64,000 nucleotides of DNA, taken from the IMG/VR virus record IMGVR_UViG_3300042382_000102, positions 16,336 through 80,335 of that record; one strand, written 5' to 3'. A program made the translations under genes and the position numbers. The notes below the pieces were generated by a model. It had not been told where the DNA came from, did not search any database, and saw only the letters and a list, made by a program, of their open reading frames with translations. Below are positions 8,763 through 53,484 of this stretch, piece by piece (positions within the stretch are counted from its first letter, which is position 1; the number at the start of each line of letters is the position of its first letter). The DNA is from a virus.

Positions 8763-8787
8763 TCTCTCTTTAGCGTCCCCTGGTAAA
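8763..8787 (-). promoter_or_regulatory. Phage single-subunit RNAP promoter (SP6-like), copy 1
   Basis: TTTACCAGGGGACGCTAAAGAGAGA; one of four intergenic copies; predicted +1 G at 8768. Confidence 0.8.
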
Positions 8788-9371: not shown

Positions 9372-9779
9372 TTAATCTCCATAAGCTTTAAAATTTATTG
9401 AATAATCACCACGATAAAGAGATTTATCTGCGGGATCAAGGCCAAGCTTCATTACTGTGCTTGCGCCAAATTGGGTTCCATTTGTCAAAGTCTTACCTTG
9501 AAATAAGGAATCTATAGTATCAGCAATAGTGAACAATTCTGCATCACCATTACCTGCCTTGACAAAGATTGATAGTATTAACATACCTGAGAATTTTTTC
9601 TTAAACCCATGAGCATCAACAGTGCCTCTTCCTGGTAGAATACTAATTCTAATAAAAGAAGTAGTAGTATCTATTGTTCCACTATAGTTGGCAGGATAAG
9701 CTTTGTATCCAGTTGTTGTCCATGCGCTTGAAGCGAATAAACCATATATGTCTGACTTTAATTTACTATACATACTCAT
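9372..9779 (-). CDS. Tail terminator-like protein
   Basis: 135 aa immediately before the major tail gene; GMLILSIFVKAGNG pattern. Confidence 0.6.
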   Translation of the reverse strand: MSMYSKLKSDIYGLFASSAWTTTGYKAYPANYSGTIDTTTSFIRISILPGRGTVDAHGFKKKFSGMLILSIFVKAGNGDAELFTIADTIDSLFQGKTLTNGTQFGASTVMKLGLDPADKSLYRGDYSINFKAYGD

Positions 9780-9780
9780 A

Positions 9781-10125
9781 TTATACTCCTGCTAATGAGA
9801 GTACAACAACAAACTCATCTTTTGAAATAACGTTACAACCATATTCTACATTATCAACGGTTACCCGTGAATAGCTATCGAAGTTAATTGCAGGATTACT
9901 TTTAATTGTGAGTGAAGTTGTAGTAACAGGAATACCAGACTCAAAGGACTTACTAGTACCTAAAAAGCCTTGAGCGGTGTATGTCTGATCCGTTTTTACA
10001 ATCGAACCAGTAGCAAAATTAAATCCACTGACGATCTTGTTGTCAAAAGTAGCAGTAACCGAAAGATCCTTTAATTTTTCAAAGGCAGTATCCACGGATT
10101 TTTGTACTTTTGATTTGAGGGACAT
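9781..10125 (-). CDS. Head closure / head-tail joining protein
   Basis: 114 aa, beta-rich; position between adaptor and terminator. Confidence 0.55.
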   Translation of the reverse strand: MSLKSKVQKSVDTAFEKLKDLSVTATFDNKIVSGFNFATGSIVKTDQTYTAQGFLGTSKSFESGIPVTTTSLTIKSNPAINFDSYSRVTVDNVEYGCNVISKDEFVVVLSLAGV

Positions 10126-10623
10126 TTAGTTTGCCCTCCACCATTGAGTAGAACCTTGGTTTACTAAAAGTGGTTTTAGGTATTTTCTAACAATACTAGG
10201 AACTACTGGAGTTCTAGTTGTGTCATTATTACTATCTTTCAATGTAATAGTACCAATTGAAATTTCTTCAAAGTTTTGTGTTTTATTATCTAACAAATTT
10301 TCATTGGATAATAAATGATGAGCCATTTCTAAAACAGCCTGTTTCATTCTCTTTGGAATTTCACTCACACTAAAGTTAACTTCTTGTCCTAATCTAGGAT
10401 CAAAAATATAAGCCCCTTTACGAGGCCACGCAAGACTCTGTGTGGAACTGACAGCAACACCGATAAATTGATTTTCATCAAGTATAAGAGTTGCAGTCAC
10501 TAATGCTGACTCCTGGTCGTCGTCTTGAGCATTTAACCATGCACCCGCATCAATGCGAGTATCAAAGTATGCATCAGCTTCGGCCATAGTTACATATGTG
10601 TTTGTACCTAGGACTAGTGCCAT
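10126..10623 (-). CDS. Head-tail adaptor protein
   Basis: NTYVTMAEADAYF...QSLAWPR motif; directly after capsid gene. Confidence 0.75.
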   Translation of the reverse strand: MALVLGTNTYVTMAEADAYFDTRIDAGAWLNAQDDDQESALVTATLILDENQFIGVAVSSTQSLAWPRKGAYIFDPRLGQEVNFSVSEIPKRMKQAVLEMAHHLLSNENLLDNKTQNFEEISIGTITLKDSNNDTTRTPVVPSIVRKYLKPLLVNQGSTQWWRAN

Positions 10624-10640: not shown

Positions 10641-11735
10641 TTAAGCGTGGAGAATAGGTAGAATACCTAAGTTCAATGCACTCATCTTACGTGCCCATGA
10701 ACCAGCAGTTGCAAAAGCAGTGTTGGTAGCAAAAGCGTTAGTAGCGCCAGCCCAGTCGTAACCCATTGGATGTACAACGAAGCCATAACGATACCAGATA
10801 GATGTAGAACCACCACCAGTGTAGGAAGCAGCAGAGCGGTCAACTTCAACAGGTGTAGGAACAGCAATATTTGTAAAGCTGATAGCGCCTGGCTTGCAAA
10901 TGAATGTAGTCTTAGTAGAACGATCATTTACGTTAGCAGAAGCTGAGAGGTCACCTTGAGCAACACGGCTGAGGATCAAACGGAACTTACCACCGAATAC
11001 GGTTTGGAATGTTAGGTTACCATCAGTAACTGTAGTTACGTCTACTAAGTTAGCAGCACGTAATTCAGCTAAAACTTCAGGTGAAGTGATCATGTACATG
11101 AAGTCAGGCTCATAGTCTTTGAATGCCATACCAAGAGCTTGGAATAGACGTTGACCACGGGCAGCACCAATAGCGGTAGCATCAAATAGCTTACGCTGAT
11201 CAGAAGCAGAAGTAGCAGCTGCGGTACCGAATACACCAGCAGCGTTGATGTCTACGAAGTTACCAACAGTAGAACCATCAGCGTCTGTGTCATAGCCAAC
11301 AATACCAGCACCACGAGAAACTTCATAAGCAGCTACACCTTTGAGTGTAGATACGATAGAGTCAGACTCGTCTTGGCTACGAACTTCAGAGAAGTCACGA
11401 GCGATTTTAGAGAGACCGTCTTGTTGAGAAACGATTTGCTGGAGGTTAACTTGTTGTGAACCGAATGTACGGACTGTCTTGATGTAGTCAGCAATTTCAG
11501 TTGACACATCAGTGTAGTTGCCTTCATTAGCGCTAGATAAGCTAGCAACGTTAATGTTGGCAGCTAGAGGTTTGTACCAGCGCATTTGACCAATGAAGCT
11601 CTCGCCTGTTGGGTCAATACGGGCATCAGTACCAACGATACCAGTGCTGTTAAGCTTCTTGGCGTTTGTGTACATTTCATCAGCATATGCAGAAATAGCA
11701 ATAGCTACGTTTTGGAACATTGTATGATTAATCAT
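10641..11735 (-). CDS. Major capsid protein
   Basis: 364 aa after scaffold; strong codon bias; C-terminal VEVDRSAA...RYGFVVHPMGYDW motif of phage coat proteins. Confidence 0.85.
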   Translation of the reverse strand: MINHTMFQNVAIAISAYADEMYTNAKKLNSTGIVGTDARIDPTGESFIGQMRWYKPLAANINVASLSSANEGNYTDVSTEIADYIKTVRTFGSQQVNLQQIVSQQDGLSKIARDFSEVRSQDESDSIVSTLKGVAAYEVSRGAGIVGYDTDADGSTVGNFVDINAAGVFGTAAATSASDQRKLFDATAIGAARGQRLFQALGMAFKDYEPDFMYMITSPEVLAELRAANLVDVTTVTDGNLTFQTVFGGKFRLILSRVAQGDLSASANVNDRSTKTTFICKPGAISFTNIAVPTPVEVDRSAASYTGGGSTSIWYRYGFVVHPMGYDWAGATNAFATNTAFATAGSWARKMSALNLGILPILHA

Positions 11736-11755: not shown

Positions 11756-12451
11756 TTAAAGTGTGAAGTTACCGAGTTTACCACCTGCAGCAAGTGCTAA
11801 CACTTCTTCAGTAGTCATATCAGTAATCTTCTTATTGGGATCGAGTTTGGGAGTACCGTTCATATTGCTACCACCACCCCCTGAATTAGATTTAGGTTTA
11901 AATAGGAAAGAATTATCTTCATTCTTTACGTATTGTCCTACAAAATCCTTGATTGATACACCAGATTTGTGAATCCATGCACCAGTTTCTGGATCTTGGA
12001 TGAGTTGATCGATAATATCACGATAGGCCATTTGGCCAGATCGCTCATTACGGAAATCAAGACTGGTTAATGCATTACGAACTGCACCATCACGGGTGAG
12101 TTCAGTTACTTTACCTTCGGCTAACGCAAGCTTTTCAGTGAGTTCTGCGAGCTTCATCTCAGCAACTTCTTTATGCTTACCTTCATCCTCTAAAGCTTTC
12201 ATCTTACGTTGTTTAGCATCATCTTCAAGACGAACACGCTCTTTAACAGCATTGTCACGTTCTTGATAAGCTTTATCTAAACTTTGTTTGATTTTAGAAA
12301 GACGCTCTTCAACCATACGATTGATCATGTCTTCTGTATCTTTATTGTTAGTACCTGCACCTGGATCTCCAACCTGATCGGCTTGAAACTCTGGGTTTAA
12401 TGTGGTACCATCATCGAGGAACTCTTTGTTTCCGAACTTATCTACTTTCAT
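11756..12451 (-). CDS. Capsid scaffolding protein
   Basis: Charged coiled coil with FLFKPKSNSGGG C-terminal motif; immediately upstream of MCP. Confidence 0.75.
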   Translation of the reverse strand: MKVDKFGNKEFLDDGTTLNPEFQADQVGDPGAGTNNKDTEDMINRMVEERLSKIKQSLDKAYQERDNAVKERVRLEDDAKQRKMKALEDEGKHKEVAEMKLAELTEKLALAEGKVTELTRDGAVRNALTSLDFRNERSGQMAYRDIIDQLIQDPETGAWIHKSGVSIKDFVGQYVKNEDNSFLFKPKSNSGGGGSNMNGTPKLDPNKKITDMTTEEVLALAAGGKLGNFTL

Positions 12452-12517: not shown

Positions 12518-15500
12518 TTACGGTCCAATACCATACCAATCCATACCTTTAGGTATAGGAGCGAGTATCTCTTTTCTCGTAATCTTGTTTTTGGGATTTA
12601 GTAAGCCATCCTCAATAGCTTTTTGGCGAAGCTTATTGTAAGTCTCGTTAGACATACCTTCAGCTTTTAATGCCAGTAATGTTTTCTCTATTGTGTTACC
12701 TTCAAGAGCATCCGCATAGATTTCTCTAAGCGCATACTTGGACTTTGCTGCTTGTCCAATGTTGGTGAAGAAAGCATCATGAATCGTAGCGGTTTCAATA
12801 CCATTTTTACGACCCCATAAATGAAATCTTCTTACAATAGTAGCATCGTTCATGTGGTTACCATTAACCCCCATGCCAATACCTGCCCTCATCAGGCTTG
12901 ATTTTCCTAGAAGTGAAGCATCTTCTGCTCGATCTTCGTAAATGTTACGGACCATCCTATTAGCTTCTTTGTCATAGAACTCAATGCTAGTTTGGATTTT
13001 AGGTCTGTATCTCTGGTATAAAGTCTTACCATCAAATGTTACCCAAGGTACATCAACCTTCTGAGTTTCATCAACGTAAGCTTTAGCAGCTTCTTTCCAG
13101 AATTGTACGAACTTTTGAGTTACTGGTGCTCTCTCAGCTAGTCTTCGAGACATAATCTCAGAGACTGCTTTGAAGTCTTGAGGTCCAATTAGACCCCTAC
13201 GAGCATTCATTAACTTATCGACAAACGCTTCTACGTCTGGGTGAGAATCACGAGCATGTGCTAAAAGTTCTTGCCCCACAGGGGTTTCACCTTCAACAAC
13301 CTCATTCAACTCACGCTTTAATTGTTTCAAACCAAAGACAACATTTTCAGCACCTAGCTTATCTGCCTCTTTGATTTTTCCATCTATAATATTTGTTACA
13401 CCACGAAGTTCTTCACGAGTAACAACAGTATATCCTTTTAACTCTAATACTGAAGCAAATTTAGCCTCAATATTAGCCGCCTGTGTTGCTTTACCAGCAC
13501 CATAGAAAGAAACCATGTTCTGAGCTTTAGCAGCTTTCTGGAGATCAGTCCATTGAACATTAGCATCTCTTAACCCTTGTATCTTTTGAAACTCTGGATC
13601 AGACACTGTATCCATAGCAACTAAGTCATACAAACGATTCTTTTGGAGTGTAGGTAACACATTTGAGTTGATTGAAATGTCTCTATCGCCTGTACTCAAA
13701 CCGATAATCTGAGCACCAGAGGATGAGGCATCATTCTCAATCATTAATTTTGTTTTGTATTCTGCTAATTTATTTACATTAGTAAAATCACCATTTACAG
13801 CTTTATGCGCACGAGCGTATTCTATTGCTAATCGACTAATCTTTGGAACTTCCTCTGCTTCAGTAGCACGGATAATAGGATGCTCTAGGTATTCCCTAAT
13901 CCTTCTATCTCGTTGAGTAGTTTCCATCATTAACCTACCAAGGCTTAGAATTTCTTTTTCATTTCTTAAAAAGATTTCCATTCTACCAGATTGTGTTAAA
14001 GCTTCTGTAGCAGGTCCAAGCATAGACCCAGTTTGAATCATTAACTCTCGTAGAATCTCAGGAGTCATATCTTCAGGTTTTGCACTATTAAGAAATGGTC
14101 TAACCACTTCACCACCAGTTGGTGTTAGGAATCCTTGATAGTATACACGTCCACGACCATCAATATTAGCGACAACACTAAAAGGTTTACCAGTATCTCT
14201 GTGATACTTAACCGTCTGCATAAAACTGTAACCTTGATCTCCACGAGTCAAAATAAGTTTTCTAAAATCATTTAAGTCATCGTACTTCTTTACGTTCCCA
14301 CGGGGATCTCTAAAGCGAACTAAGTCTTCCATGAATCCAGCATACTCGTTATCAACCTCATATTGAACTGACATTGTATGATTAAGCATATCAGCAAAAT
14401 CATTGTCAATAAGAATTTTATCGTAATTAGCATTAGCCCTGCGAGTAATAATCGGAATACCTGTATTATTGCCTCTAGCATCAAAATAAGTCTTAGCTCC
14501 AGAACGAACATACAGCTTGTCTCTTGGAGAATTAATACCAATACGTTTTGCTAGCAATGCACTACGATTAGCTCTCTGTAAGTTTAACATATCTTTGTTT
14601 AAGATCTGTACTTCACGACTAACTGTATCTCTCCAAGGACCACTTGCACGACCTGTTTCTAGGTCAACAACTGATCTCCTAGTCTTACCTCTCATGACCA
14701 CACGAATGTAGCCTTTGTCTTTTAAGGCAGTAAGAATTTGGGAACCATCAGCATGATAGTCTTGTAATGTAGGTTTAAAGAACGGGAACTCTGGGACATT
14801 CCAAGATTCTCTCAATGTCTTTCCTACATTAATAGCTAATGAGTCATAGTCAGTAGACTTACCATCAGCAACTACAGTTAAAACTTTAGATAGGGCATCA
14901 ATAGCCTTCTTGTCGTTAAGACCACCCTCAACTAATTGATTTAAATAATTTTGTCTTTGTTTACCAAATAGAAACTCTAAGTCTACTATTCTTCGATAGT
15001 CTTCTCTTCTGTTTCTTAAAAATTCATCAACTAATCTTTCAGTAGGCGCTTTATCTTTAAAAAATAGTTTAGCACCAGGAATATTATCCTCTAAGTATTT
15101 AACTATTTTCTTTTTAAAAACATCAATACCAATTCTAGGAGTACCTTTAAACCATGTGTATAGTGGAGTTCTTCCAGTATAATACAAGCTTCTGGCTAGA
15201 GGTCTACCTTCAGTAGTAGCCCAATTACGAACATATCTTTGATCATCTATATTCTTTTGAATGATTTCATCAAAGGTATAATACTTACCAAATATTTGTA
15301 CTTTAGCAGGTTCTCCAGCAACTCCATATGAGTCAAATTGTGATGATCGTGCTCTTGATCTACGATCTAGAATACGACTAGTGTTAACTACAGAATACTG
15401 CATTTCACCACGGGCAACATTCATGAAGTTTACCCAAGGCTGTTTATCATTGTTATATCGTTCAAATACAACACGCAAATTTTCAGCAATAGCAGTCTGT

Positions 15501-16936
15501 TGGTTAACAGAAACAGAATCATCTAGGCTTTCAACGAATTGTTGAATCCAAACTTTTTGTTCTTGGTTTAGAGCCTTAGAGTTTTTAATAAAGTCTAATC
15601 GTTCCTGTAATACACCAAAGTCTGGGTCATACAAAAGAGTAGAACTCTGTTCACCTGTAAAGGGATCAAAGCTATTATTACGTTCATCAAACTCGTTATT
15701 AGCCCTAATCCTAACTGATCGTTTACCTTGTAATGAGGTACCACGATAGTCTACTAGAGATAGTGTTTGTGCAGTATTTTCAGTGTCCGCTATATACATT
15801 GCCTTTAATTGTTTATTGGCCTCTGTATTTTTAATAAGTTCATTAGGTCTAGCTACATTAACAGCAAATAAATTAGATTCAGCTTCTGCTACTGCGGCTT
15901 GCCTAGTTGGAAAGAATGTTGTTCTTGCATTATCAAGTTTTCTTAATGCTGCAATACTTAATTGTTGACCCTTAGCGGTAGTAAATGCTTTAACGTCAAG
16001 AACACCTTTTTGTAGTAATCCTGCACGTTCTTCACTACCTAAATGTTTAACTTGTACCATCATAGGCTGACGCTTAAGCCATGTACCATAAGTTTCTACT
16101 GGGGGTAAGCTACCATCTAAAATATTCTCAGATGTTTCCTTAAGTTTATTTACTTTAACTCTTGATTCAGCTTCCTCAGAAGCTTTTAATAGTTCTTCTT
16201 TGTTCTTTAAAACAGGAACCATAGAACTACGGCAATTCCAGTGTAAGGGAGGTCTAAAACGAAGATCATCAATCTTATATACTTGACCATCATGGTGAGC
16301 ACAGATCTTTGATGTTCTATTATCTAACACAGCAGTAAATCTATAACCTTTTAGTAATTCGTTATTACGATCCATTACTAGATTAATTGCTTTAGCTTGC
16401 GTATTCGTAATAGCAGTTCTAACTAATACCTTAGCTTGCACTTCAGTCATAGTTGTAGTCTTAATTACATCAGCAATAATTTCTTTAACAGGTTTATTGT
16501 CTGCTAATCCTGACTTAATTTTTCCATCAATCCTAGCTAACTCAGTTGTACCAATACTGTCAAAGTGATCTTTTAAACTCTTTGAGGCAGTAATATTAGG
16601 TCCAATCAGGAGAGGAATAGCATCACTACCTCTAGGTTTTTGTACCCTAAAGAAAGATCCAGCACTTCTCTCTAGATTATTAGCATGGAAGCTTACAGAG
16701 GCATCTGCATAATCACTAACTGAATTTTTAGTAATCATGTGTAACTCTTTAGTTGCTCGAGTTACTTCTGGTTTAACATCAGCCTTAATATTTTTAGATA
16801 ATAAAATCTTTAATCTTTTCTGATGCCTACGGATGCCTCTAGAAACATTGGTTGATGTCTCTGCTTCATATAGCCTAGTGTCAGCTAAGTGTTGTACAAT
16901 ACGATCATAAACTTCCGTATTAATTGGTGTTGGCAT
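12518..16936 (-). CDS. MuF (SPP1 gp7-like) minor head protein fused to a T7/SP6-type single-subunit RNA polymerase (candidate virion RNAP)
   Basis: N-terminal MuF motifs YRFTAVLDNRTSKICAHHDG and PPLHWNCRS; C-terminal RNAP motifs DGRGRVY, NDASSSGAQ (A), KAAKAQNMVSFYG (B), NGNHMND, IHDAFFT (C); one uninterrupted ORF between portal and scaffold. Confidence 0.9.
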   Translation of the reverse strand: MPTPINTEVYDRIVQHLADTRLYEAETSTNVSRGIRRHQKRLKILLSKNIKADVKPEVTRATKELHMITKNSVSDYADASVSFHANNLERSAGSFFRVQKPRGSDAIPLLIGPNITASKSLKDHFDSIGTTELARIDGKIKSGLADNKPVKEIIADVIKTTTMTEVQAKVLVRTAITNTQAKAINLVMDRNNELLKGYRFTAVLDNRTSKICAHHDGQVYKIDDLRFRPPLHWNCRSSMVPVLKNKEELLKASEEAESRVKVNKLKETSENILDGSLPPVETYGTWLKRQPMMVQVKHLGSEERAGLLQKGVLDVKAFTTAKGQQLSIAALRKLDNARTTFFPTRQAAVAEAESNLFAVNVARPNELIKNTEANKQLKAMYIADTENTAQTLSLVDYRGTSLQGKRSVRIRANNEFDERNNSFDPFTGEQSSTLLYDPDFGVLQERLDFIKNSKALNQEQKVWIQQFVESLDDSVSVNQQTAIAENLRVVFERYNNDKQPWVNFMNVARGEMQYSVVNTSRILDRRSRARSSQFDSYGVAGEPAKVQIFGKYYTFDEIIQKNIDDQRYVRNWATTEGRPLARSLYYTGRTPLYTWFKGTPRIGIDVFKKKIVKYLEDNIPGAKLFFKDKAPTERLVDEFLRNRREDYRRIVDLEFLFGKQRQNYLNQLVEGGLNDKKAIDALSKVLTVVADGKSTDYDSLAINVGKTLRESWNVPEFPFFKPTLQDYHADGSQILTALKDKGYIRVVMRGKTRRSVVDLETGRASGPWRDTVSREVQILNKDMLNLQRANRSALLAKRIGINSPRDKLYVRSGAKTYFDARGNNTGIPIITRRANANYDKILIDNDFADMLNHTMSVQYEVDNEYAGFMEDLVRFRDPRGNVKKYDDLNDFRKLILTRGDQGYSFMQTVKYHRDTGKPFSVVANIDGRGRVYYQGFLTPTGGEVVRPFLNSAKPEDMTPEILRELMIQTGSMLGPATEALTQSGRMEIFLRNEKEILSLGRLMMETTQRDRRIREYLEHPIIRATEAEEVPKISRLAIEYARAHKAVNGDFTNVNKLAEYKTKLMIENDASSSGAQIIGLSTGDRDISINSNVLPTLQKNRLYDLVAMDTVSDPEFQKIQGLRDANVQWTDLQKAAKAQNMVSFYGAGKATQAANIEAKFASVLELKGYTVVTREELRGVTNIIDGKIKEADKLGAENVVFGLKQLKRELNEVVEGETPVGQELLAHARDSHPDVEAFVDKLMNARRGLIGPQDFKAVSEIMSRRLAERAPVTQKFVQFWKEAAKAYVDETQKVDVPWVTFDGKTLYQRYRPKIQTSIEFYDKEANRMVRNIYEDRAEDASLLGKSSLMRAGIGMGVNGNHMNDATIVRRFHLWGRKNGIETATIHDAFFTNIGQAAKSKYALREIYADALEGNTIEKTLLALKAEGMSNETYNKLRQKAIEDGLLNPKNKITRKEILAPIPKGMDWYGIGP

Positions 16937-17228: not shown

Positions 17229-18842
17229 TTAAGCTCCTGAATTATTATCTGTACGATTGTTGTCATTCATATCAGATACATTTGAGTCAATTCTAGTTGC
17301 CATAGTATCTACAAGAGGATCACTCTGAATCTCAGCTATACCTTCTTCATCGTTATACTCAGCAGGGAGTACATCGTTAAACTTAGCAATAGAGATAAAT
17401 GTAGAACGTGGAATAATACCTTGCTGGTACCATTCTGTAACTAGTCTCATCCAGTCAGCACCTACAGGTGTAGGATTAAAGTCAGCACTTAATGTAAACT
17501 TAATGTCTGTTGGAAGAACATCAACATTATATTTCCACTTAAGCATAACTGTAATAATCTGTCTCATTGTCTCTGAGATACGAGTATTAAGCATGCCTAA
17601 TTGAGCAGTCTGAGCAGCATTACGGATTTCTAAGCTTACGCCTGACTCACCTGAAGAACCTTCTGGCGATAACATGCGGATTCCCATACGAGCCATCTCT
17701 TCGATAGTAGCAGCAATACTTGCCTCCATATCTTTTAGAGCACCTGTAGGTGTATCTAGTGCTTTGATATCATCTCCTGCACGAAGTTTAATCCATGAGC
17801 CTAAACCAGCAGCTACAATATCCTCAAACTCTTCATCAGTCATATCTGACATGACTACTGGAGTGTATGTTGCAGCGCCATAGAGTAAATGATTACGTCT
17901 ACTAATCTTGTTGTATAGTGCAATCTCACGATCAATTAATGATTGTAGAATTGGTTCAACAGGATCAATTTGACCATTTAATGGGTAGGCAGGAATGAAA
18001 TTCATTCTCTCACCATTCATTAATGGTATTTCTGTGCGTGTTTTAGTCCATGCTGCATTAGCGTTATCTGTCTGATACTTAGAAGTAACATTACCATTAA
18101 TAACGTTAACAGACTCATTAGTGTCTCGTGTGTAAGTATCCACAACAAGTAAGCCTGCATCATCTAGGTAGTAGTGAGTAACTGTGTCTACATAGTCTGG
18201 ATGGAATTGATTTTTAGTATAGTCTTCCATATAATAACGGAAGAGTAAACTTGTTAATACTTGTTTGTTAGTATTACGGTCTTGACCTCTACGCCAGTTA
18301 ATAATATTCTCTGCTTGAATGAGCATAACATATGGTGATAGAGCCTTAGCTTCTTCTACTGTTAATGCGTCTGGGTTAGCAACTGTAGGATAGTCTACTA
18401 AGCACCAAGCTCTGGATGACTGTAATTCTTCCCAAATAGCAGCATCTAAAAATCCATGTAGTGAGGTACCATCAGAGCCAAAAGAAGTACGAATCCAATC
18501 TTCAGTTCCTTCTGGGAACATATTATCAGGTAATTCAATAGCCGCTTGTTTACGTAGTAGTCCACCCACTAAAACTTTAGCATATTGTGCTGTTAGACCT
18601 GGAAGTTCACCTTCAGCACGATAAAAATTGTACTGTTGAGAACTCATTGTAGGAGAAAATGGTAACAATAGGTTACTAAAATTTACTGGATCAATTGTAT
18701 CATCATATGCTCGTGCATGTGTCTGTCCATTTAGAACAGCTCTGGATCGTTCCCAGAGTGGCCGCATAGATTCGTATGCAGCATTAGGATCCCCAAGGCT
18801 TTTTGTCTTAGCCTTTGATGGGGTCGTTGTTAGGTTTGCCAT
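17229..18842 (-). CDS. Portal protein (DUF4055-like)
   Basis: 537 aa; IQAENIINWR and ESGVSLEIR motifs; upstream of MuF, scaffold and MCP. Confidence 0.85.
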   Translation of the reverse strand: MANLTTTPSKAKTKSLGDPNAAYESMRPLWERSRAVLNGQTHARAYDDTIDPVNFSNLLLPFSPTMSSQQYNFYRAEGELPGLTAQYAKVLVGGLLRKQAAIELPDNMFPEGTEDWIRTSFGSDGTSLHGFLDAAIWEELQSSRAWCLVDYPTVANPDALTVEEAKALSPYVMLIQAENIINWRRGQDRNTNKQVLTSLLFRYYMEDYTKNQFHPDYVDTVTHYYLDDAGLLVVDTYTRDTNESVNVINGNVTSKYQTDNANAAWTKTRTEIPLMNGERMNFIPAYPLNGQIDPVEPILQSLIDREIALYNKISRRNHLLYGAATYTPVVMSDMTDEEFEDIVAAGLGSWIKLRAGDDIKALDTPTGALKDMEASIAATIEEMARMGIRMLSPEGSSGESGVSLEIRNAAQTAQLGMLNTRISETMRQIITVMLKWKYNVDVLPTDIKFTLSADFNPTPVGADWMRLVTEWYQQGIIPRSTFISIAKFNDVLPAEYNDEEGIAEIQSDPLVDTMATRIDSNVSDMNDNNRTDNNSGA

Positions 18843-22992: not shown

Positions 22993-23010
22993 TTAAATCC
23001 TTTAAAAGAA

Positions 23011-23083
23011 GAGTGATAGTGGGAGTCGAACTCACATTCCGAAGCAATTAAATCCTCGATTCTACCGATTGAATTATACCACT
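23011..23083 (-). tRNA. Degenerate tRNA-like gene (nominal anticodon TAA; probably pseudo or undetermined)
   Basis: AGTGGTA/TATCACT acceptor, ATTC/GAAT D stem, GTTCGACTC T loop; mismatches in anticodon and T stems, U at 37, no CCA. Confidence 0.6.
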
Positions 23084-23086
23084 CTA

Positions 23087-26033: not shown

Positions 26034-26056
26034 TCTCTCTTTAGCGTCACCTGGTC
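26034..26056 (-). promoter_or_regulatory. Phage RNAP promoter (SP6-like), copy 2, heading the late operon
   Basis: GACCAGGTGACGCTAAAGAGAGA. Confidence 0.8.
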
Positions 26057-26640: not shown

Positions 26641-26663
26641 TTTCTCTTTAGCGTCCCCTGGTA
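26641..26663 (-). promoter_or_regulatory. Phage RNAP promoter (SP6-like), copy 3
   Basis: TACCAGGGGACGCTAAAGAGAAA directly upstream of the SleB-like gene. Confidence 0.8.
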
Positions 26664-29837: not shown

Positions 29838-30139
29838 GTGTGTTCAATTATTTTAATACCAGCCTCTTTAATAGCTGACATACAGATCGGACAAGGTTTG
29901 GCATTTAATGAATCACCCTGTCTGCCGTATCTAGCTACAAAGATTCTGTGAGCTTTGTTTAAATCTTTACATTTAAGAATAGCATGTACCTCTGCGTGTA
30001 AATATATTTTATATGGTTCACCAACCCCCACAGCATGTTTTGCCATAAGAGGGTGGCTCTTCACATAATTATTTTGACCTACAGAAAGTACACGTCCCTT
30101 CTTATCATATAAGATAGCAGTCAGGGCATGCTTAGTCAT
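29834..30139 (-). CDS. Cytidine/deoxycytidylate deaminase-like protein
   Basis: HAE and PCPIC zinc motifs. Confidence 0.8.
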   Translation of the reverse strand: MTKHALTAILYDKKGRVLSVGQNNYVKSHPLMAKHAVGVGEPYKIYLHAEVHAILKCKDLNKAHRIFVARYGRQGDSLNAKPCPICMSAIKEAGIKIIEHT

Positions 30140-36908: not shown

Positions 36909-37885
36909 TCCCAGTTACCATTCATACCATTAACACTATACTCAGTAACACGCTTCTCAAAGAAGTTATCGTGAGATACACCTGATAAAACCCAGTCAAG
37001 CCAAGTTAAAGGATTTTCTTTTACTCGGAATACTGGTTTTAAACCAAGCTGAATAAGGCGACGATCTGTGATAAATCTAATATAATTTCTTACATCTTCT
37101 TTAGTTAATCCTTCAATTTTATTACCAGTAAAGGCAAGATCAATAAACCTATCTTCTAACTCAACAGCTTCTTTAGCCATTTGATAAATTTTAGATTTAA
37201 ACTCATCATTGATAATACGAGGATGTTCTTCACAATACTTACGGAATAATGCCGCACCGCCCTCTACATGTACTGTTTCATCTCGAATAGACCATTCAAC
37301 TACAGTTCCCATACCTTTCATTTTACCGAAACGTTGGAAGTTAAGTAACATAACAAATGAAGCGAATAAAGCAACACCTTCATTAAATACACCTTTGGCT
37401 AAAGTTAAAGCTACGCCAGAATGTGTTCCTGTATCATTAGATTGCATAAAGTCAATCTTATCTGCCATCTCTTTGTATTCTAAAAATCGATGATATTCTT
37501 CATCAGGCAAACCTAGGGTATCATTCAATAGTGCATAAGCTCTTTGATGAGTACCTTCACGACCAGCAAAGGAACCTAGCATAACACGAACTTCATTGTT
37601 CTTAAATTTAGGTATTAAATAGTCATAATAGTTTTGACCTACTTGAACATCACCTTGAGTAAATAATCTTAAGATATGAGTAATAAACTCTTTTTCCTGA
37701 TCATTTAACTTTAGTTTCCAATCTGATACATCTTCAGATAAATCAGCTTCATCTTCAGTCCAATGAATTTCTTCATGTTTCTTTGTTAAATCTACAGCCC
37801 AATCATGAAAGAAAGGTTTATAAGTTTTATTAAAAGTGGTTAATGTTGATGCAGGAATATTATCCTTCACAAGCTTTGCATTCAT
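36902..37885 (-). CDS. nrdB: Ribonucleotide reductase class Ia beta subunit
   Basis: FTQGD, REGTHQRAY, EGVALF, RDETVH iron ligands; NFFEKRVTEY. Confidence 0.95.
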   Translation of the reverse strand: MNAKLVKDNIPASTLTTFNKTYKPFFHDWAVDLTKKHEEIHWTEDEADLSEDVSDWKLKLNDQEKEFITHILRLFTQGDVQVGQNYYDYLIPKFKNNEVRVMLGSFAGREGTHQRAYALLNDTLGLPDEEYHRFLEYKEMADKIDFMQSNDTGTHSGVALTLAKGVFNEGVALFASFVMLLNFQRFGKMKGMGTVVEWSIRDETVHVEGGAALFRKYCEEHPRIINDEFKSKIYQMAKEAVELEDRFIDLAFTGNKIEGLTKEDVRNYIRFITDRRLIQLGLKPVFRVKENPLTWLDWVLSGVSHDNFFEKRVTEYSVNGMNGNWDW

Positions 37886-39863
37886 TGTCTTCTGCCTCTA
37901 CTGCGTTTGTTAATGTTTGGAAATGAGCATATAGTTTATCAAATCCACCGATATACTCTCCGTCTAAATAAATTTGTGGTAACGATCTAACATCATCACG
38001 ACCAGTAACTTCAGCCGCTGTTTTGCCTAAAGCTACAATATCAATATAGTCAAATGGAATACTCTTTGAATTTAACAAAGCTTTAGCCATTTCACAATTT
38101 GGACAATTTGGTTTACCATATATGATTGTTGTCTTCTCATATTTTAATTTATCTTCTTTAACTTTTTCTGAGACATTTTCAGCACGAACTTTAGCTTCTG
38201 TACGGAGATAATACAAACCTTTCAACCCAGATTCCCAAGCTAAAATATGTGCATCTTTAACATATTTCTTTTCTGCTCCTGCAGGGAAAAATAAGTTAAC
38301 AGATTGGCCTTGACAAACATATTTTTGTCTATCTGAAGCATGTTTAATAACCCAACTTTGATCTAACTCAAAACTAGTTTTAAACACATCTTTTATACTA
38401 TCTTCTAAGAATGGCAAATGTTGCACAGATCCACCACTAGTAATAATATTAGCCCATACTTCATTTGTATTATGTTGAATCTTATCTAAATACTTTTCAA
38501 GATATTTGTTTTTAACTAAGAAAGATCCTGCACGAGTACGATGTGTATATGCATTAGCCTTATTAGGTTCAATACTAGGAGAAGTACTTAACAGAATACC
38601 AGAAGAAGCATTAGGGGCTACTGCTAGTAAATGTGAATGCCTTACCATTACTGGAGACATATCTGGAGCAGGTCCACGACTTTCAGCTAAAGCGCCAGAG
38701 ATCTCTTTTGCTTGATTTTTAATATAATCAAATATTTCAATGTTTAGCTTGGATGCATCGTTACTTTCAAAAGGTATCATTCTACTCTGTAACAAGTTAT
38801 GAAAACCCATTGCTCCAACACCAATAGATCTTTCTTGAGTAGCGCTATATACTGCCCTACTAAGACTGTCTGGAGCATTCTCAATAAAATATTCTAGTAC
38901 GTTGTCAAGCATTGTTACTAAATCTTTGACCATTGATGTATGTTTCCATTGGTCATAGTGTTCTAGATTAACAGAGCTTAAACAACATACTGCTGTACGA
39001 TCTTCATTCGTAGGTAAATGAATTTCATTACAGAGGTTGCTACCATGTACTTTTAAACCTTTTTCCTTTAATTGAATAGGTAATGCGTCATTAACAGTAT
39101 CAATGAAGTTAAGGTAAGGCTCACCTGTACGGAAGCGAGTTTCCAATAACTTGATAAATACTTTTCTAGCATCAAGGGATTCGCCTGTTGGTCCTTTCTT
39201 TGGATCAACAAGCTCATATGTTCTACCTTCTTTGACAGCTTCCATGAAATTATCAGTGATATTAACAGCGTTATGTAAGTTAAGACATTTACGATTGTTA
39301 TCACCTGTGGGAACACGAATACTAATAAATTCAAGAATATCAGGATGATCAATATCGAGATATGCAGCATAAGAGCCCTTTCTAGTTTTACCCTGCCTAT
39401 AAGCAGTCATATCAGCATCAATTGTGCTTAAGAAAGGTATAGGCCCAGGAGCAATGTCAGATACACTACGGATGTCAGACCAATGACCTCCGACCCCTCC
39501 GCCCATGACGGATAACCAACGAATTTCAGAACTATGATCAATAAGACCAGAGACAGTATCAGGAACATAAGTTAAAAAGCAAGAGATTGGCATTCCTTTA
39601 CCTTTACCATTAATATCGGGAGCATTCGATAATACAGGTGAGGCAAACATAAACCATTTGTTTGAGATATAGTCATACAGTCTTTGAGCTAACTCTAAAT
39701 CTGTTTGACCTTTAAATGTGCTCCAAGCACGACAAGCTCTAGCATAAACTTCCTGTGGAGATTTTTCATTATCTTTTGCATAGAACTCTAGTACCATGTC
39801 AAAGGCATAATCTGTTAAAAGTTTATCTTTATCTAAATCAATTTCAATATCGTAGTATTTCAT
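37860..39863 (-). CDS. nrdA: Ribonucleotide reductase class Ia alpha subunit with fused glutaredoxin domain
   Basis: ISCF, SNLCNEI, VCCLSS, APNASS, GLYYLR; then IYGKPNCPNC...LPQIYLDGEYIGGF; terminal CKAC. Confidence 0.93.
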   Translation of the reverse strand: MKYYDIEIDLDKDKLLTDYAFDMVLEFYAKDNEKSPQEVYARACRAWSTFKGQTDLELAQRLYDYISNKWFMFASPVLSNAPDINGKGKGMPISCFLTYVPDTVSGLIDHSSEIRWLSVMGGGVGGHWSDIRSVSDIAPGPIPFLSTIDADMTAYRQGKTRKGSYAAYLDIDHPDILEFISIRVPTGDNNRKCLNLHNAVNITDNFMEAVKEGRTYELVDPKKGPTGESLDARKVFIKLLETRFRTGEPYLNFIDTVNDALPIQLKEKGLKVHGSNLCNEIHLPTNEDRTAVCCLSSVNLEHYDQWKHTSMVKDLVTMLDNVLEYFIENAPDSLSRAVYSATQERSIGVGAMGFHNLLQSRMIPFESNDASKLNIEIFDYIKNQAKEISGALAESRGPAPDMSPVMVRHSHLLAVAPNASSGILLSTSPSIEPNKANAYTHRTRAGSFLVKNKYLEKYLDKIQHNTNEVWANIITSGGSVQHLPFLEDSIKDVFKTSFELDQSWVIKHASDRQKYVCQGQSVNLFFPAGAEKKYVKDAHILAWESGLKGLYYLRTEAKVRAENVSEKVKEDKLKYEKTTIIYGKPNCPNCEMAKALLNSKSIPFDYIDIVALGKTAAEVTGRDDVRSLPQIYLDGEYIGGFDKLYAHFQTLTNAVEAEDNECKACEG

Positions 39864-43191: not shown

Positions 43192-43601
43192 TTTTGTTGT
43201 ACTCTTATATTACTGTGAATTAATGTTAAAATACCTGAATCAGTTTTATATCTGTCTGAAAATATTACTCTTTCAACGCCAGATTGGATTAGTAGCAGTG
43301 AACAATTGTCACAAGGAGCAGTTGTCACATATACTGTTGATCCTTTTAAACTCAAACCTTCTGCAGCAGCCTTAGAGACTAAATTTGCTTCAGCATGAAT
43401 TACATAGGATAATGTTTTATTATAATCATCTTCACATTTATTAGGAAAACCTGTGGGAGTTCCATTAAATCCGAAGCTGAGAATATTATTATTTTTTACT
43501 GCTATAGCACCAACCTTACGCTTTTCAGCATGAGACATTAGTGCTATTCTTTTAGCAAGATCTAAATACAGGGAATCGTAGCGATCTTCTTTTGTAACCA
43601 T
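43188..43601 (-). CDS. dCMP deaminase
   Basis: KVGA, GFNGTP, HAEAN, PCDNC. Confidence 0.9.
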   Translation of the reverse strand: MVTKEDRYDSLYLDLAKRIALMSHAEKRKVGAIAVKNNNILSFGFNGTPTGFPNKCEDDYNKTLSYVIHAEANLVSKAAAEGLSLKGSTVYVTTAPCDNCSLLLIQSGVERVIFSDRYKTDSGILTLIHSNIRVQQK

Positions 43602-48298: not shown

Positions 48299-48564
48299 TA
48301 TGACTTAAAATTTAACCAATCTGGTTCCATAGTTACAAGGTGCTGAATTAACCCGATGTTCTCTACATCAACTAAATCTGCAATCTCTCTAATAAATTCT
48401 CGTTCTCCCATTAATGATTCAATTGTGCAAACAGTATAATCTTCATTATATGAAAAATCATCTCCAAGTTTACACAATAATAACATTTCAAATTCACTAA
48501 TAGAATCAGTGAATGTTATAGTATATTCAGAAGTAACCAAGAACTGCTCCAATGAAGGGTACAA
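48298..48564 (-). CDS. Hypothetical acidic protein
   Basis: TTG start with GGAG RBS. Confidence 0.5.
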   Translation of the reverse strand: MYPSLEQFLVTSEYTITFTDSISEFEMLLLCKLGDDFSYNEDYTVCTIESLMGEREFIREIADLVDVENIGLIQHLVTMEPDWLNFKS

Positions 48565-48699
48565 AGACTCCGATTATACGACCGATAATCCAACCAAGTG
48601 GGGTATCAGCATTCATGAATAAAATAGCTACAAAGTTTGCTATCCAACCATAAATAGATGCTATTACAATACCTAATCCTACTAAACCTGCAAATATAT

Positions 48700-48837
48700 T
48701 CATTTACCTTGTCCTCGATAGCGTTTAAATGATCGACGTTGTGTCTTGGTCATTGTTGATGTTTTAGGTCGTGAACCACCTTGTGAAGTTCGTTTAACAA
48801 TGCCCTTAACTGTTTCTTTTCCAATTTTCTTTGCCAT
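48700..48837 (-). CDS. Small basic protein ending KRYRGQGK
   Basis: 45 aa with AAGGA RBS; not in ORF track. Confidence 0.6.
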   Translation of the reverse strand: MAKKIGKETVKGIVKRTSQGGSRPKTSTMTKTQRRSFKRYRGQGK

Positions 48838-48850
48838 ATATTCCTTTAAT

Positions 48851-48925
48851 TGGTCCCTCTTGTAGGAATCGAACCTACATTAATAACTTAGAAGGTTACT
48901 GTTCTATCCATTGAACTAAAGAGAG
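48851..48925 (-). tRNA. tRNA-Arg(TCT)
   Basis: Complete cloverleaf: CTCTCTT/AAGAGGG acceptor, anticodon loop CTTCTAA, GTTCGATTC, encoded CCA. Confidence 0.93.
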
Positions 48926-48927
48926 TG

Positions 48928-49002
48928 TGGTGGGACAAGTAGGAATTGAACCTACACTCAATCGATTATGAGTCGACTGCTTTACCATTAAGCTATTATC
49001 CC
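48928..49002 (-). tRNA. tRNA with CAT anticodon, probably tRNA-Ile2 (alternatively Met)
   Basis: Complete cloverleaf with CCA; anticodon arm GTCGA-CTCATAA-TCGAT and TTCAA T loop resemble bacterial Ile2. Confidence 0.85.
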
Positions 49003-49006
49003 TGAT

Positions 49007-49030
49007 AAAATAGGAGACCTAAGTCCCCTA
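49007..49030 (-). terminator. Terminator or processing hairpin after SSB gene
   Basis: TAGGGGAC-TTAG-GTCTCCTA-TTTT. Confidence 0.55.
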
Positions 49031-49038
49031 ATTGCTAA

Positions 49039-49539: not shown

Positions 49540-49606
49540 AGGTTTTAGTTTCCTTAATTATAATTTCATTTTTAATATTTAGTATACAATTGAATTTGCA
49601 TACGTT

Positions 49607-49630
49607 AGTGCTTTAGCGTACCCTGGTAAA
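49607..49630 (-). promoter_or_regulatory. Phage RNAP promoter (SP6-like), copy 4, heading the replication genes
   Basis: TTTACCAGGGTACGCTAAAGCACT immediately after the RNAP stop codon. Confidence 0.75.
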
Positions 49631-49632
49631 AC

Positions 49633-51801
49633 TTAACAAAAAGCATAATCAGAATACACAATCTGACCGACATCTAGATTACCCCTTTCAGGAATAAGGT
49701 CTTTACAGTCGAGTTCAGCAAGCAATTTTTCAAGAGGTTTACTTTTGTAAAACTCAACAAACTGTTCTCTTACTCTATAAAACAAATCATCCATTCGTCC
49801 TGGTAAAGTACCAAAAGAATCATGAACAACAGTCATTTCATAAGGAGCAGATACAACAGTCATTGTTAGGTGAGCAGCATCAAAGCTATGAACAATGTTT
49901 GGTGCAGCACCTGTTCTTTGGGAATCTTTATTAATAGTTGTTTCTTCCCAAGTTTGAAGTTGAATCTTTAATTCTTCTTCTCCGTACTTCAACTTAGTAC
50001 GTACAATAGATGGCTTACGATATGCCTGTACAACTGGGAAGTTAGTTACAGGTGTAGTCCATTTTAGAAACACTTCTTTTTCATTAGATCTTTGTGCAAG
50101 ATCCTGAAACATACGCAACATAGTGGCTGGTCCTTTGAGTTTCTCATAACAAGTCTCAAATACCAGATCACCTAATAGCGCACCCCAGAGGTGTTCCTTG
50201 TCACGAAGATACTCAGACATATCACGAGTGTCATCAATAATTTGTTGACCCATGCCGTATGCAGTACCACCGTAACCGAGTGTCATTACATTTCTCTTTA
50301 CTACTTTCCGTTGATCTTTAGGGTTATCGATTTTAAGCCAGTAAACAGGAAATAATTTTTCTCGTATTGCTCTATTTTGATTACGCCATTCTTGGGCAGC
50401 AGCATAGGCTAATGCTTTTTGCTCTGTCTTTTCAGGTGCATCAAAATAAGCTTTTTGTAGTTCTTTAGCTTTACCATAAACAGAGTCAAACTGACCTCTT
50501 TCTTCAGGTGTTAGCTTGTCTGCCATCTCTTGTAAATGTTCCCATACATATTTTGCAATATACATGTAGACATCACCAGGAAGCTCTTGTGGAACTAAAT
50601 TTACTAATGGAGCAATATCTTCATCCTGAGACATAGCTACTAGATGTTGAACTCCGTTATTAGAACCATCAATGTAAACAGGAAGTGAACATTCATATTC
50701 TTCTAACTTATTTCCTTCCATTAGCCACTCCTTAATCTTCTTTAACTCATAACAAGCAGCTAAGAAAGAAAATGGGGCATCAGTATCAATCCAACCTTGG
50801 TTAATAGTTGGCTTCTCTGCATAAGATAAAAATAAATTAATATTCTCATCTACAAACTCTGCTCTTTGTTTTAGTGTAACTTTGTCATTACCGAAAGAGT
50901 TAGAGGTATGTACTTTTAACCAGAATAAACCATTTTCTCCAAGTGGTGCTGGTTGATCTAATAAGAGTAAACCTTTAGCATTATCACTAGATTGCTCATG
51001 CAAGAATGCTGTATTCACATATACACGACCACGAAAATCGAAGTTATACATATGATAAAAGGTATTATCTAAATGGTTTGAAGCTAGTTGTTCAATAGCC
51101 TCAGCTTCAATCAGCAGAGATTTCTTTTTCTCTTCATCAATTTCAGAATGTAATTTAAATGGACTAACTGAATTTTCCTTATGAAGAAAATGTTGATAAA
51201 CTTTAAATACATCTTTGTTAATGCGCCATCCTGTAGCTTGTAATTTATTTAGAACATTGTAAAGTATTTCTTTATCATTATTCTTAAATTGTGCTAATGC
51301 TGTAGAGTGACCTTTCTTAATAATAGGAACACCTAAATTATTATGAGCAGAATCCCATGGGCATGGGGCTTCTCTCATGGGAAAGATATCAACTTTAGTT
51401 TGATCAATTAGACTCCATAAGTCTTTAATTGATTTCCAATCTTTAACTTGAAAGAAATAAGCTTGGTACTTACTCTTCTTGCCATTCTTGTATGTATACT
51501 TTAATTTAAAAGATAAAACATTACATTCAATATAAGCAATACACACAAACCAGCCGACTTGTGCATCAAAGATTGTGTCATTAGGTAATTCAAGAGTTTG
51601 TCGAATTCTCCTGCCAATAGTAGCAATAATGTCTACTAAAGTACCTTGTCTCTCAAGTCCACGTAATACATGAGGATATGAGATGTCTATTAGTGTCTTT
51701 GGATCTACATCTTTCAAGTAGTGAGTATAGATATTTCTATCTGAACGCAACGTAGCTTGACGTAGCTTAATATCATTAACTAATTTATCTAGAACGGTCA
51801 T
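49633..51801 (-). CDS. T7/SP6-type single-subunit DNA-directed RNA polymerase
   Basis: DFRGRVY, DGSNNGVQH, RKVVKRNVMTLGYG, APNIVHSFD, VHDSFGT. Confidence 0.96.
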   Translation of the reverse strand: MTVLDKLVNDIKLRQATLRSDRNIYTHYLKDVDPKTLIDISYPHVLRGLERQGTLVDIIATIGRRIRQTLELPNDTIFDAQVGWFVCIAYIECNVLSFKLKYTYKNGKKSKYQAYFFQVKDWKSIKDLWSLIDQTKVDIFPMREAPCPWDSAHNNLGVPIIKKGHSTALAQFKNNDKEILYNVLNKLQATGWRINKDVFKVYQHFLHKENSVSPFKLHSEIDEEKKKSLLIEAEAIEQLASNHLDNTFYHMYNFDFRGRVYVNTAFLHEQSSDNAKGLLLLDQPAPLGENGLFWLKVHTSNSFGNDKVTLKQRAEFVDENINLFLSYAEKPTINQGWIDTDAPFSFLAACYELKKIKEWLMEGNKLEEYECSLPVYIDGSNNGVQHLVAMSQDEDIAPLVNLVPQELPGDVYMYIAKYVWEHLQEMADKLTPEERGQFDSVYGKAKELQKAYFDAPEKTEQKALAYAAAQEWRNQNRAIREKLFPVYWLKIDNPKDQRKVVKRNVMTLGYGGTAYGMGQQIIDDTRDMSEYLRDKEHLWGALLGDLVFETCYEKLKGPATMLRMFQDLAQRSNEKEVFLKWTTPVTNFPVVQAYRKPSIVRTKLKYGEEELKIQLQTWEETTINKDSQRTGAAPNIVHSFDAAHLTMTVVSAPYEMTVVHDSFGTLPGRMDDLFYRVREQFVEFYKSKPLEKLLAELDCKDLIPERGNLDVGQIVYSDYAFC

Positions 51802-52002
51802 TTAGGCAAATTCGAAAGCTGTTTGATGATTTGATTGTGTTGTTTCCTTGTTGTTTAACTTTTTATAGAGCCAGATAATAAAGGTCTCTAGTAAAAGAAC
51901 TAAAACTTCAAATAGGATTGCTTTTGTCATTATTATTATTATATCCTGTTTTTGATTAAAAAATTCAGAAGAACCCCAAGGCATCTAGCCTCGGGGATCT
52001 TT

Positions 52003-52212
52003 TTAGGAAGCTAATTTAGCGTCCATTGGTAGTTCAGTAGCCTCTACTTCAACTATACCATTTTTTCTATCTTGATACCATGTAACTACTTTATTAGCCA
52101 CATAGAAAGATAAACCGATAACTAAAACTTCCTTAGCAAAATTCAAGGTAAGAAGTGCAGCTAAGAAGCCAAGCAACCAACCAAGAAAGTAACCAACTGT
52201 TGTTAAAGCCAT
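52003..52212 (-). CDS. Early membrane protein
   Basis: Hydrophobic 69 aa; GGAG RBS. Confidence 0.55.
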   Translation of the reverse strand: MALTTVGYFLGWLLGFLAALLTLNFAKEVLVIGLSFYVANKVVTWYQDRKNGIVEVEATELPMDAKLAS

Positions 52213-53144: not shown

Positions 53145-53484
53145 TTACAATTACCTTTATTAATAAACTAGCGCATCAAGACCATGTAATACCAAAGCAC
53201 ATAGGCCTAAGCCAATAGCAATAGCAGTAACAACATCCATAAATGTTTCAGATTCAAAAAACTTTTTCATTTTAAACTTTCTTAGAGTGAACAATTATAT
53301 TTCAATATCCAACTGTTTTGCAGATGGTATAGAAATCAAACAACCGCATGATCAAAAGACCAACAGCCAAACCAGCAAAAAATGTCAATACAATCATATA
53401 ACCTTTCAAGTTAATAGAGATTAGAGTCCTATCTTTTAAGATATTCTTCTATTATAGATACATCATTTTTCTCACTTTTTTTGA

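Follow-up and report, generated by a model that had tools for sequence, protein, structure and literature searches.

A single open reading frame (ORF) of 1472 amino acids (aa), on the minus strand of a 64,000-nucleotide stretch of viral DNA (positions 16,336 to 80,335 of IMG/VR record IMGVR_UViG_3300042382_000102, referred to here as the window), encodes a MuF minor head protein fused to a T7-type single-subunit RNA polymerase (RNAP). This domain architecture is certain. The fusion is no artefact; it is old and widespread, being conserved across a large phage clade that includes the Naomviridae. We propose that the fusion protein is probably an RNAP that is packaged in the capsid, injected into the host, and starts a transcriptional relay resembling that of phage N4. 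Virion RNAPs and the MuF cargo route are each known separately; what would be new is their combination. The window is the last 64 kb of the 80,335-bp record, which is rated complete by CheckV and comes from a freshwater phage with a GC content of 35%. Coordinates are those of the window unless stated otherwise.

Domain architecture of the fusion protein

The protein has a mass of 165 kDa and consists of three parts, a MuF domain (aa 1-345), a helical domain (aa ~356-660) and a T7-type RNAP (aa ~665-1472). The original prediction had described a single 1472-aa ORF with a number of sequence motifs; the frame is indeed uninterrupted, and all the motifs were recovered to within one base of the positions given for them. 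All of the following are on the minus strand.

12518..16936, minus strand: MuF-RNAP fusion gene, 1472 aa, uninterrupted
15902..16936, minus strand: MuF / SPP1 gp7-like minor head domain, aa 1-345 (PF04233, phrog_241, AlphaFold2 model)
aa 204-217 and aa 229-237, minus strand: MuF motifs, from the ORF translation
14957..15871, minus strand: conserved helical middle domain, aa ~356-660 (AlphaFold2 model, predicted local distance difference test (pLDDT) ~90 for aa 360-530)
12521..14944, minus strand: complete T7-type single-subunit RNAP module, aa ~665-1472, as predicted from PF00940, the family profile, the AlphaFold2 model and VIA-align
14141..14161, minus strand: T/DxxGR motif DGRGRVY, aa 926-932, R930 invariant
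13715..13735, minus strand: motif A NDASSSG, aa 1068-1074, D1069 (T7 D537) invariant
13499..13537, minus strand: motif B KAAKAQNMVSFYG, aa 1134-1146, the site of a group I intron insertion in relatives
aa 1358-1364, minus strand: NGNHMND, D1364 invariant
12770..12784, minus strand: motif C IHDAF, aa 1385-1389, H1386-D1387 equivalent to T7 H811-D812, D1387 invariant

The RNAP module was analysed at the level of profile, motif and predicted fold. The Pfam profile RNA_pol (PF00940) matches aa 1053-1436 with 29.4 bits, above its curated cut-off of 22, and phrog_414 (RNA polymerase) matches the protein at 3e-22. A profile of the family, searched against the PDB, finds T7 RNAP (1.3e-16), mitochondrial RNAP (1.6e-11) and N4 RNAPII (8e-6), and its alignment to T7 RNAP consists of four motif blocks in the same order in both. 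AlphaFold2 produced a model of aa 600-1472 with a pLDDT of 85.7 and a predicted template modelling score of 0.80. Foldseek aligns this model to T7 RNAP over about 900 columns (E 3e-20), and VIA-align superimposes it on the T7 elongation complex with a Z score of 33.0 and a root-mean-square deviation of 3.3 Å over 519 residues. For the T7 promoter complex (1cez, aligned from T7 residue 90) and the intermediate initiation complex (3e2e, from residue 107), Z is 27-28 over 616-627 residues. The Z score reaches 29.6 for mitochondrial RNAP and is 18.9 for N4 mini-vRNAP. Both the polymerase profile and the palm fold that the original prediction called for are found, the latter within a right-hand polymerase fold that the superposition places nearer T7 than N4. 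The prediction had the right family but too small a module: it gave the T7-like part about 600 residues, whereas the alignment starts at about T7 residue 90, so that the module is about 800 residues long (aa ~665-1472, equivalent to T7 ~90-883) and includes the promoter-binding N-terminal domain.

An alignment of 25 sequences, comprising the fusion protein and representatives of 24 clusters at 17-56% identity, was used to assess which residues are invariant. R930, D1069, K1134, K1137, Y1145, G1146, D1364 and D1387 are unchanged in all 25, down to 17% identity. Within motif B these are K1134, K1137 (T7 K631), Y1145 (Y639) and G1146 (G640). Both catalytic aspartates, and the lysine and tyrosine of motif B, are thus present as originally described, and homologues lacking a catalytic aspartate were not seen among the 25. 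It had also been suggested that the motif B arginine is replaced by lysine. There is an invariant lysine, but K1134 is one residue out of place, T7 R627 (four residues ahead of the motif B lysine) being aligned by spacing with Gln1133. Judged from its sequence and model, the RNAP part is a complete T7-type enzyme with intact catalytic residues, and is apparently active.

The N-terminal position of the MuF domain is confirmed by profile matches. Phage_Mu_F (PF04233) matches aa 141-239 with 42.9 bits (curated cut-off 29.6, E 9.6e-11), and phrog_241 (head morphogenesis) matches aa 52-349 at 3e-53. The AlphaFold2 model for aa 1-680 (pLDDT 83) has the MuF domain at aa 1-340, followed by a low-confidence linker (aa 342-355) and the helical domain (aa ~360-660), in which G399, L456 and R488 are conserved. 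No match to the middle domain or to the N-terminal half was found in the PDB by Foldseek at E<=0.001; a wide VIA search with the N-terminal half gave only generic helical bundles (Z<10), and a search of the ESM Atlas with aa 350-665 gave nothing usable. A complex predicted for the portal protein (537 aa, 9-row alignment) and the MuF domain (aa 1-345, 32-row alignment) scored 0.10, below the mark, and so bears on portal binding in neither direction. It is worth adding that the fusion gene has the sole PF04233 match in the 80-kb genome, and the fusion protein must therefore also do the normal job of MuF in the head.

Conservation and distribution of the fusion

A single-sequence search with aa 600-1472 against 1.84 billion protein representatives returned only 129 clusters. 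Nearly all of their full-length members are 1400-1560 aa long, with the match at about residues 600-1500, and no free T7-like RNAP was reached by this search. The original prediction had recommended looking for the same fusion in viral metagenomes, where it is indeed found: IMG/VR contains 50 loci at 51-99% identity, and about 25 independent loci, these being all that have enough upstream DNA, encode it as one ORF of 1468-1483 aa, with the sole exception of the locus L043 described below. Phage_Mu_F is present in 22 of 25 representatives, the other three being a fragment from the window and two short entries. PF00940 matches 20 of 25 family members at E<0.001, and these 25 members contain no Pfam domain other than MuF and RNA_pol. 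In the 90% collection the fusion accounts for at least 431 protein clusters, most having both Pfam domains precomputed. Their names are only 'SPP1 gp7 family putative phage head morphogenesis protein' or 'minor head/capsid protein'.

Two cultured roseophages, DSS3_VP1 and DSS3_PM1 (Naomviridae), encode a full-length orthologue with 48.8% identity, annotated as a head protein (YP_010105321.1). Recurrence of this ORF in about 25 independent contigs, and in two cultured phages as well, rules out a chimeric join or assembly artefact.

The gene is interrupted in two of the relatives. In EBPR siphovirus 1 it is split by an HNH endonuclease gene. In L043 (IMGVR_UViG_3300034072_000514, 9593-10403) the interruption is inside motif B, after the lysine equivalent to K631, and consists of a group I intron (Rfam RF00028, 86 bits) and, behind it, an ORF of 178 aa. 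The same residue is where many entries for this family in the databases begin or end. Sites that are essential for function and most strongly conserved are the usual targets of homing elements. There are also short family members (785-968 aa), whose start points are scattered over aa 292-685 of the full protein, which suggests that they are 5'-truncated fragments rather than free forms; one member, of 812 aa, has its own N-terminus and could be either.

A second polymerase and two classes of candidate promoter

The fused RNAP had been described as a second RNAP in its genome, and a free-standing one is indeed encoded elsewhere in the window. A first class of candidate promoter, here called class 1, has the SP6/T3-like consensus TACCAGGGGACGCTAAAGAGA. 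The genome has it five times in full, always in the same orientation as the genes, the fifth copy being at genome position 3142.

49633..51801, minus strand: free-standing T7/SP6-type RNAP, 722 aa, the proposed second polymerase (phrog_414 4.5e-131, PF00940 267 bits)
49608..49628, minus strand: class-1 copy, directly after the free RNAP gene
26643..26663, minus strand: class-1 copy
26036..26056, minus strand: class-1 copy, the last upstream of the terminase, portal and MuF-RNAP genes
8765..8785, minus strand: class-1 copy, ahead of the tail genes
53443..53480, minus strand: class-2 element, 38 bp, candidate early promoter, sequence AAAAAGTGAGAAAAATGATGTATCTATAATAGAAGAAT

The free and fused enzymes of this genome are only 21% identical. 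Both are present in all six genomes compared (the source phage and five relatives, including DSS3_VP1), the free enzyme having 722-737 aa in all but one. The exception is the relative G003 (L054, G003:C1:7322-9337), where the open frame of the free RNAP has 1020 aa: an insertion of about 300 aa, possibly an intein, is in frame and divides the Pfam match in two.

Of the class-1 copies, the first directly follows the free RNAP gene and the others stand at the start of later units. No full copy is found in the genome upstream of the early region; a weaker variant with three mismatches lies just upstream of the free RNAP gene (near window 52014-52030). The relatives G003 and G004 keep the motif. 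In DSS3_VP1 its counterpart has diverged and occurs at least ten times, the first again being right after the free RNAP gene of that phage.

A second element, class 2, was recognised by comparison with relatives. A search for repeated k-mers in the intergenic DNA of the source genome yielded the class-1 motif, the arms of tRNAs and a repetitive coding region, and nothing else. The class-2 element directly follows a terminator (53492-53511) that ends the tail-fibre and hemO unit, and it heads the early region leading to the free RNAP gene. It is single-copy in the source genome; G003 has two or three copies (L054 817-839 and 1401-1423) and G004 has one (L062 457-479), and in comparison with these two relatives nothing else in that non-coding DNA can be aligned. 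An exact-pattern scan located it in 24 IMG/VR stretches, in one or two copies each, and at least nine of the 24 belong to contigs in which the fusion gene had already been found. In seven (L066, L067, L074, L075, L077, L080 and L087) it is 0.4-2.4 kb from the contig end, and elsewhere it is internal; the terminal position may reflect a physical genome end near the early region, or chance. In DSS3_VP1, copies at 35811 and 36258 stand at the start of the early region, and a third copy is partial.

About 38 contiguous bases are nearly unchanged between the freshwater phage, with 35% GC, and DSS3_VP1, with 47.5% GC. The element contains a perfect TATAAT, with GAAGAA directly after it, the latter resembling an SP6-type start and initially transcribed region. 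There is no -35 hexamer at 16-18 nt (the sequence here is A-rich, unlike TTGACA) and no extended -10; a sigma70 scan of the gap that holds the element found nothing, and the conserved block covers positions that sigma70 does not read. No conserved hairpin is present in it. Parts of the region are represented in RNA data: in four freshwater metatranscriptome runs scattered parts of 48500-54000 are covered, by Logan contigs that carry no starts, ends or strand and could include DNA carry-over.

When bacterial genome contigs were scanned for the class-2 element, the only finds were a phage contig that had been mis-binned and a match within an ORF that is due to chance. The contig L090 (JBIKJV010000357.1, labelled MAG: Phycisphaerales bacterium), 13.9 kb long and from a lake metagenome, is collinear with the source phage by tblastx. 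Most probably a phage fragment was mis-binned here, and the label says nothing about the host.

Position of the fusion gene in the genome

Almost all genes of the window are on the minus strand. The original prediction had placed the ORF in the slot between portal and scaffold, ahead of the capsid gene, and PHROG matches to the flanking genes bear this out.

17229..18842, minus strand: portal protein, immediately upstream of the fusion gene (phrog_145 1e-57)
11756..12451, minus strand: scaffolding protein, immediately downstream of the fusion gene (phrog_206 1.9e-10)
10641..11735, minus strand: major head (capsid) protein (phrog_247 1.7e-26)

This order of portal, MuF, scaffold and capsid is the canonical one for a MuF gene, and is identical in DSS3_VP1. 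Together with the terminase, PhoH and a tape measure protein of 2438 aa, these genes form a siphovirus-type late module around the fusion gene, and the source phage is long-tailed. The fusion gene lies within a late unit, the nearest class-1 promoter upstream being at 26056, and no convincing terminator was found between this promoter and the capsid gene.

Proposed mechanism

We propose that the MuF domain would bind the portal during procapsid assembly, as SPP1 gp7 does, so placing a few copies of the 165-kDa protein inside the head. At infection these would exit through the tail with the DNA. The fused RNAP would then initiate at the 38-bp class-2 element, whose TATAAT-GAAGAA core is like a T7-group start and has no -35, and would, with no need of the host RNAP, transcribe the free RNAP gene together with the small early genes. 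The free RNAP would in turn read the class-1 promoters heading the middle and late units, among them the one from which new MuF-RNAP is made. The injected enzyme, by transcribing, may also help to draw the genome into the cell. By analogy, the simplest assignment would be class 2 to the fused polymerase and class 1 to the free one.

That a polymerase is made only late, with the head proteins, is best understood if the next cell is its destination. The same logic applies to N4 gp50, which is encoded late and used in the next cell. The topology, with MuF N-terminal and cargo C-terminal, is identical to that of MuF-toxin fusions. The original prediction regarded MuF as a delivery tag for the RNAP. 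Of this, the MuF domain, the complete RNAP, the conserved fusion and the second RNAP are borne out; the case for capsid packaging via the portal, ejection, and early host-independent transcription or DNA pulling is circumstantial, and is made by the late-operon position, the sole MuF gene, the MuF-cargo precedent, and a conserved early element that does not resemble a sigma70 promoter.

Several points weigh against this proposal. We infer the presence of the fusion protein in the virion, its ejection and its catalytic activity from indirect evidence. As for activity, by spacing it is Gln1133 that occupies the position of T7 R627, with the invariant K1134 one position later. A folded protein of 165 kDa must traverse the tail channel, although the precedent of N4 gp50 shows that this is possible. 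A polymerase made late could also act in the producing cell. Finally, the promoter classes are assigned to the two polymerases by analogy only, and the class-2 element, with its perfect TATAAT and A-rich upstream block, could be a host sigma70 promoter lacking a -35, as at the left end of T7; this would leave the injected-polymerase step without its promoter.

Alternative explanations

The last of these points leads to an unlikely alternative, namely that class 2 is used by host sigma70, while the packaged RNAP reads class-1 promoters, hairpin or single-stranded signals, or a replication-priming site. T7-like phages do begin with host promoters, both T7 and mitochondrial RNAPs are able to prime DNA replication, and the TATAAT with its A-rich upstream tract fits. 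Against it, the element has neither a -35 at 16-18 nt nor an extended -10; its GAAGAA, directly after the TATAAT, looks like an SP6-type initially transcribed sequence; and the roughly 38 contiguous bases, including positions irrelevant to sigma70, are kept between a freshwater phage and DSS3_VP1, a phage of Ruegeria pomeroyi DSS-3, in spite of their difference in GC content. The packaged and injected protein might alternatively have a mainly mechanical role, in which transcription pulls in the genome and early expression is left to the host RNAP. Genome entry in T7 is driven by transcription, and the location of class 2 within 0.4-2.4 kb of the contig end in seven of the 24 stretches may hint at a nearby genome end. 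MuF also acts at the start of infection, in that SPP1 virions lacking gp7 are only about 25% infectious (PMC6316719). However, class 2 is internal in the other contigs and the early region has no good sigma70 promoter, and we consider a mainly mechanical role improbable; pulling and early transcription are in any case not exclusive.

A comparably small chance is given to the idea that the polymerase works in the producing cell, either as a late-gene polymerase or, tethered to the portal, by coupling transcription or R-loop clearance to packaging, MuF having only its head role. The fusion gene is in a late unit with structural genes, as this would require. Yet the class-1 promoters at the head of the late units are already explained by the free RNAP, the procapsid interior is where MuF proteins are sent (PMC6316719), and a C-terminal cargo on MuF is a delivery arrangement that recurs (PMC5512222); it would also be hard to see why the fusion is so strictly kept over a deep clade if tethering were irrelevant. 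It is scarcely credible that the RNAP module is a dead structural relic, serving as an internal head or ejection protein, or that the ORF is an assembly chimera. The Pfam RNA_pol match is weak (29.4 bits) and the motif B arginine is not at the T7 position, but the catalytic residues are all invariant at 17-56% identity, the match to T7 RNAP is full-length and of high confidence, the intron is at the most conserved motif, and the same ORF recurs in about 25 independent contigs and two cultured phages.

Comparison with known systems

[quoted passage not shown] In N4 too a second phage polymerase (N4 RNAPII) takes over, and the early region is headed by a few early promoters. The differences are nevertheless considerable. 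N4 gp50 has about 3500 aa, with an N-terminal injection region, a C-terminal encapsidation region and a fused (zincin) metallopeptidase, but no MuF (PMC5512222). The fusion protein has 1472 aa, with MuF at its N-terminus; it has neither the giant size and architecture of the N4 type nor N4 mini-vRNAP as its closest fold: the Z score is 33 for T7 RNAP and 29.6 for mitochondrial RNAP, against 18.9 for N4 mini-vRNAP. N4 early promoters are DNA hairpins, whereas class 2 shows no conserved hairpin, and N4 is a podovirus, whereas the source phage has its long tape measure protein.

The MuF half is best compared with SPP1 gp7, phage Mu gpF and the MuF-effectors, in which, as in the fusion protein, MuF is N-terminal and the gene comes after the portal gene. 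In SPP1 the portal protein gp6 binds gp7 strongly and directs a few copies to the procapsid interior (PMC6316719). MuF proteins with a C-terminal toxin cargo are thought to be delivered via the portal and capsid route (PMC6316719; PMC5512222). The cargos described include predicted RNases, ADP-ribosyltransferases, RelA/SpoT, phosphoribosyltransferase and kinase domains, RNA polymerase not being among them, and virion RNAP modules are stated to occur only in N4-like phages (PMC5512222).

The polymerases of T7, T3 and SP6 (Autographiviridae), and mitochondrial RNAPs, share the fold of the fused RNAP from the promoter-binding N-terminal domain to the C-terminus, and motifs T/DxxGR, A, B and C and the tyrosine that selects ribonucleoside triphosphates are all present in it. 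The T7, T3 and SP6 enzymes differ from it in being free proteins that are made early and not packaged. The fused RNAP has about 660 extra N-terminal residues and is about 14-17% identical to T7-type enzymes. The phiKZ/AR9-type jumbo phages and the crAss-like phages embody the same concept of a packaged polymerase with host-independent early transcription, but their virion RNAPs are multisubunit or two-barrel enzymes, with a fold unrelated to that of T7 RNAP. AR9 and PBS2 have deoxyuridine-containing DNA (dU-DNA), like the Naomviridae.

The closest cultured phages are DSS3_VP1 and DSS3_PM1 (Naomviridae, Noahvirus), which share with the source phage the orthologue at 48.8% identity, the order portal, fusion, capsid, the free RNAP and both promoter classes. 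They differ in being marine, in their GC content (47.5%), in having dU-DNA as a demonstrated feature, and in a diverged class-1 sequence. The paper describing the family Naomviridae never mentions RNA polymerase (PMC8323127), nor is it mentioned in the paper on the dU enzymes (PMC12697855). The original prediction did not recall this architecture as having been characterised, and no published description of a MuF-RNAP fusion was found in the full-text literature, a coverage that leaves out most subscription journals.

Other features of the genome

Two ORFs of the dCMP-deaminase family are present in the window (43257-43577 and 29852-30130, both minus strand), and no ThyA, ThyX or YfbR-type HD phosphatase was found in the 80-kb genome. 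This gene content is compatible with dU-DNA, as in the related Naomviridae. The large subunit of ribonucleotide reductase (37860-39863, minus strand) has a C-terminal thioredoxin-like domain (phrog_22, aa 565-656). There are three tRNA genes, all on the minus strand: Arg-TCT and Met-CAT in tandem at 48851-49002, just past the first class-1 promoter, and Leu-TAA at 23010-23084, ahead of the terminase gene. Genome positions 1-2161, upstream of window base 1, are highly repetitive, with many near-identical 13-mers, and are probably the repeat-rich coding sequence of a tail or fibre protein.

Significance

Virion RNAPs are known from N4-like, phiKZ/AR9-like and crAss-like phages. If our proposal of a packaged, injected polymerase is true, the fusion protein would be another and structurally simpler solution, in which an ordinary T7-type enzyme is placed on a generic capsid-targeting domain. 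It would be the first information-processing enzyme shown to use MuF as a delivery tag. MuF would then be able to carry an 800-residue enzyme into a cell, which bears on phage engineering, and the compact polymerase and its promoter may serve biotechnology as a new orthogonal pair. Because the database label refers to head morphogenesis only, the polymerase is invisible to annotation-based surveys. The cultured members DSS3_VP1 and DSS3_PM1, which grow on Ruegeria pomeroyi DSS-3, make the hypothesis directly testable.

We consider the chances about even that the whole long-tailed clade, comprising the freshwater phages, other uncultured relatives and the dU-DNA Naomviridae, runs a self-contained relay of two polymerases, in which a MuF-cargo RNAP reads the 38-bp promoter, nearly constant in phages with widely differing hosts, and hands over to an SP6-like RNAP. 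Such a relay would have evolved independently as a compact counterpart to the N4 system, and would explain host-independent transcription in an aquatic group of at least 431 clusters, including the dU-DNA Naomviridae.

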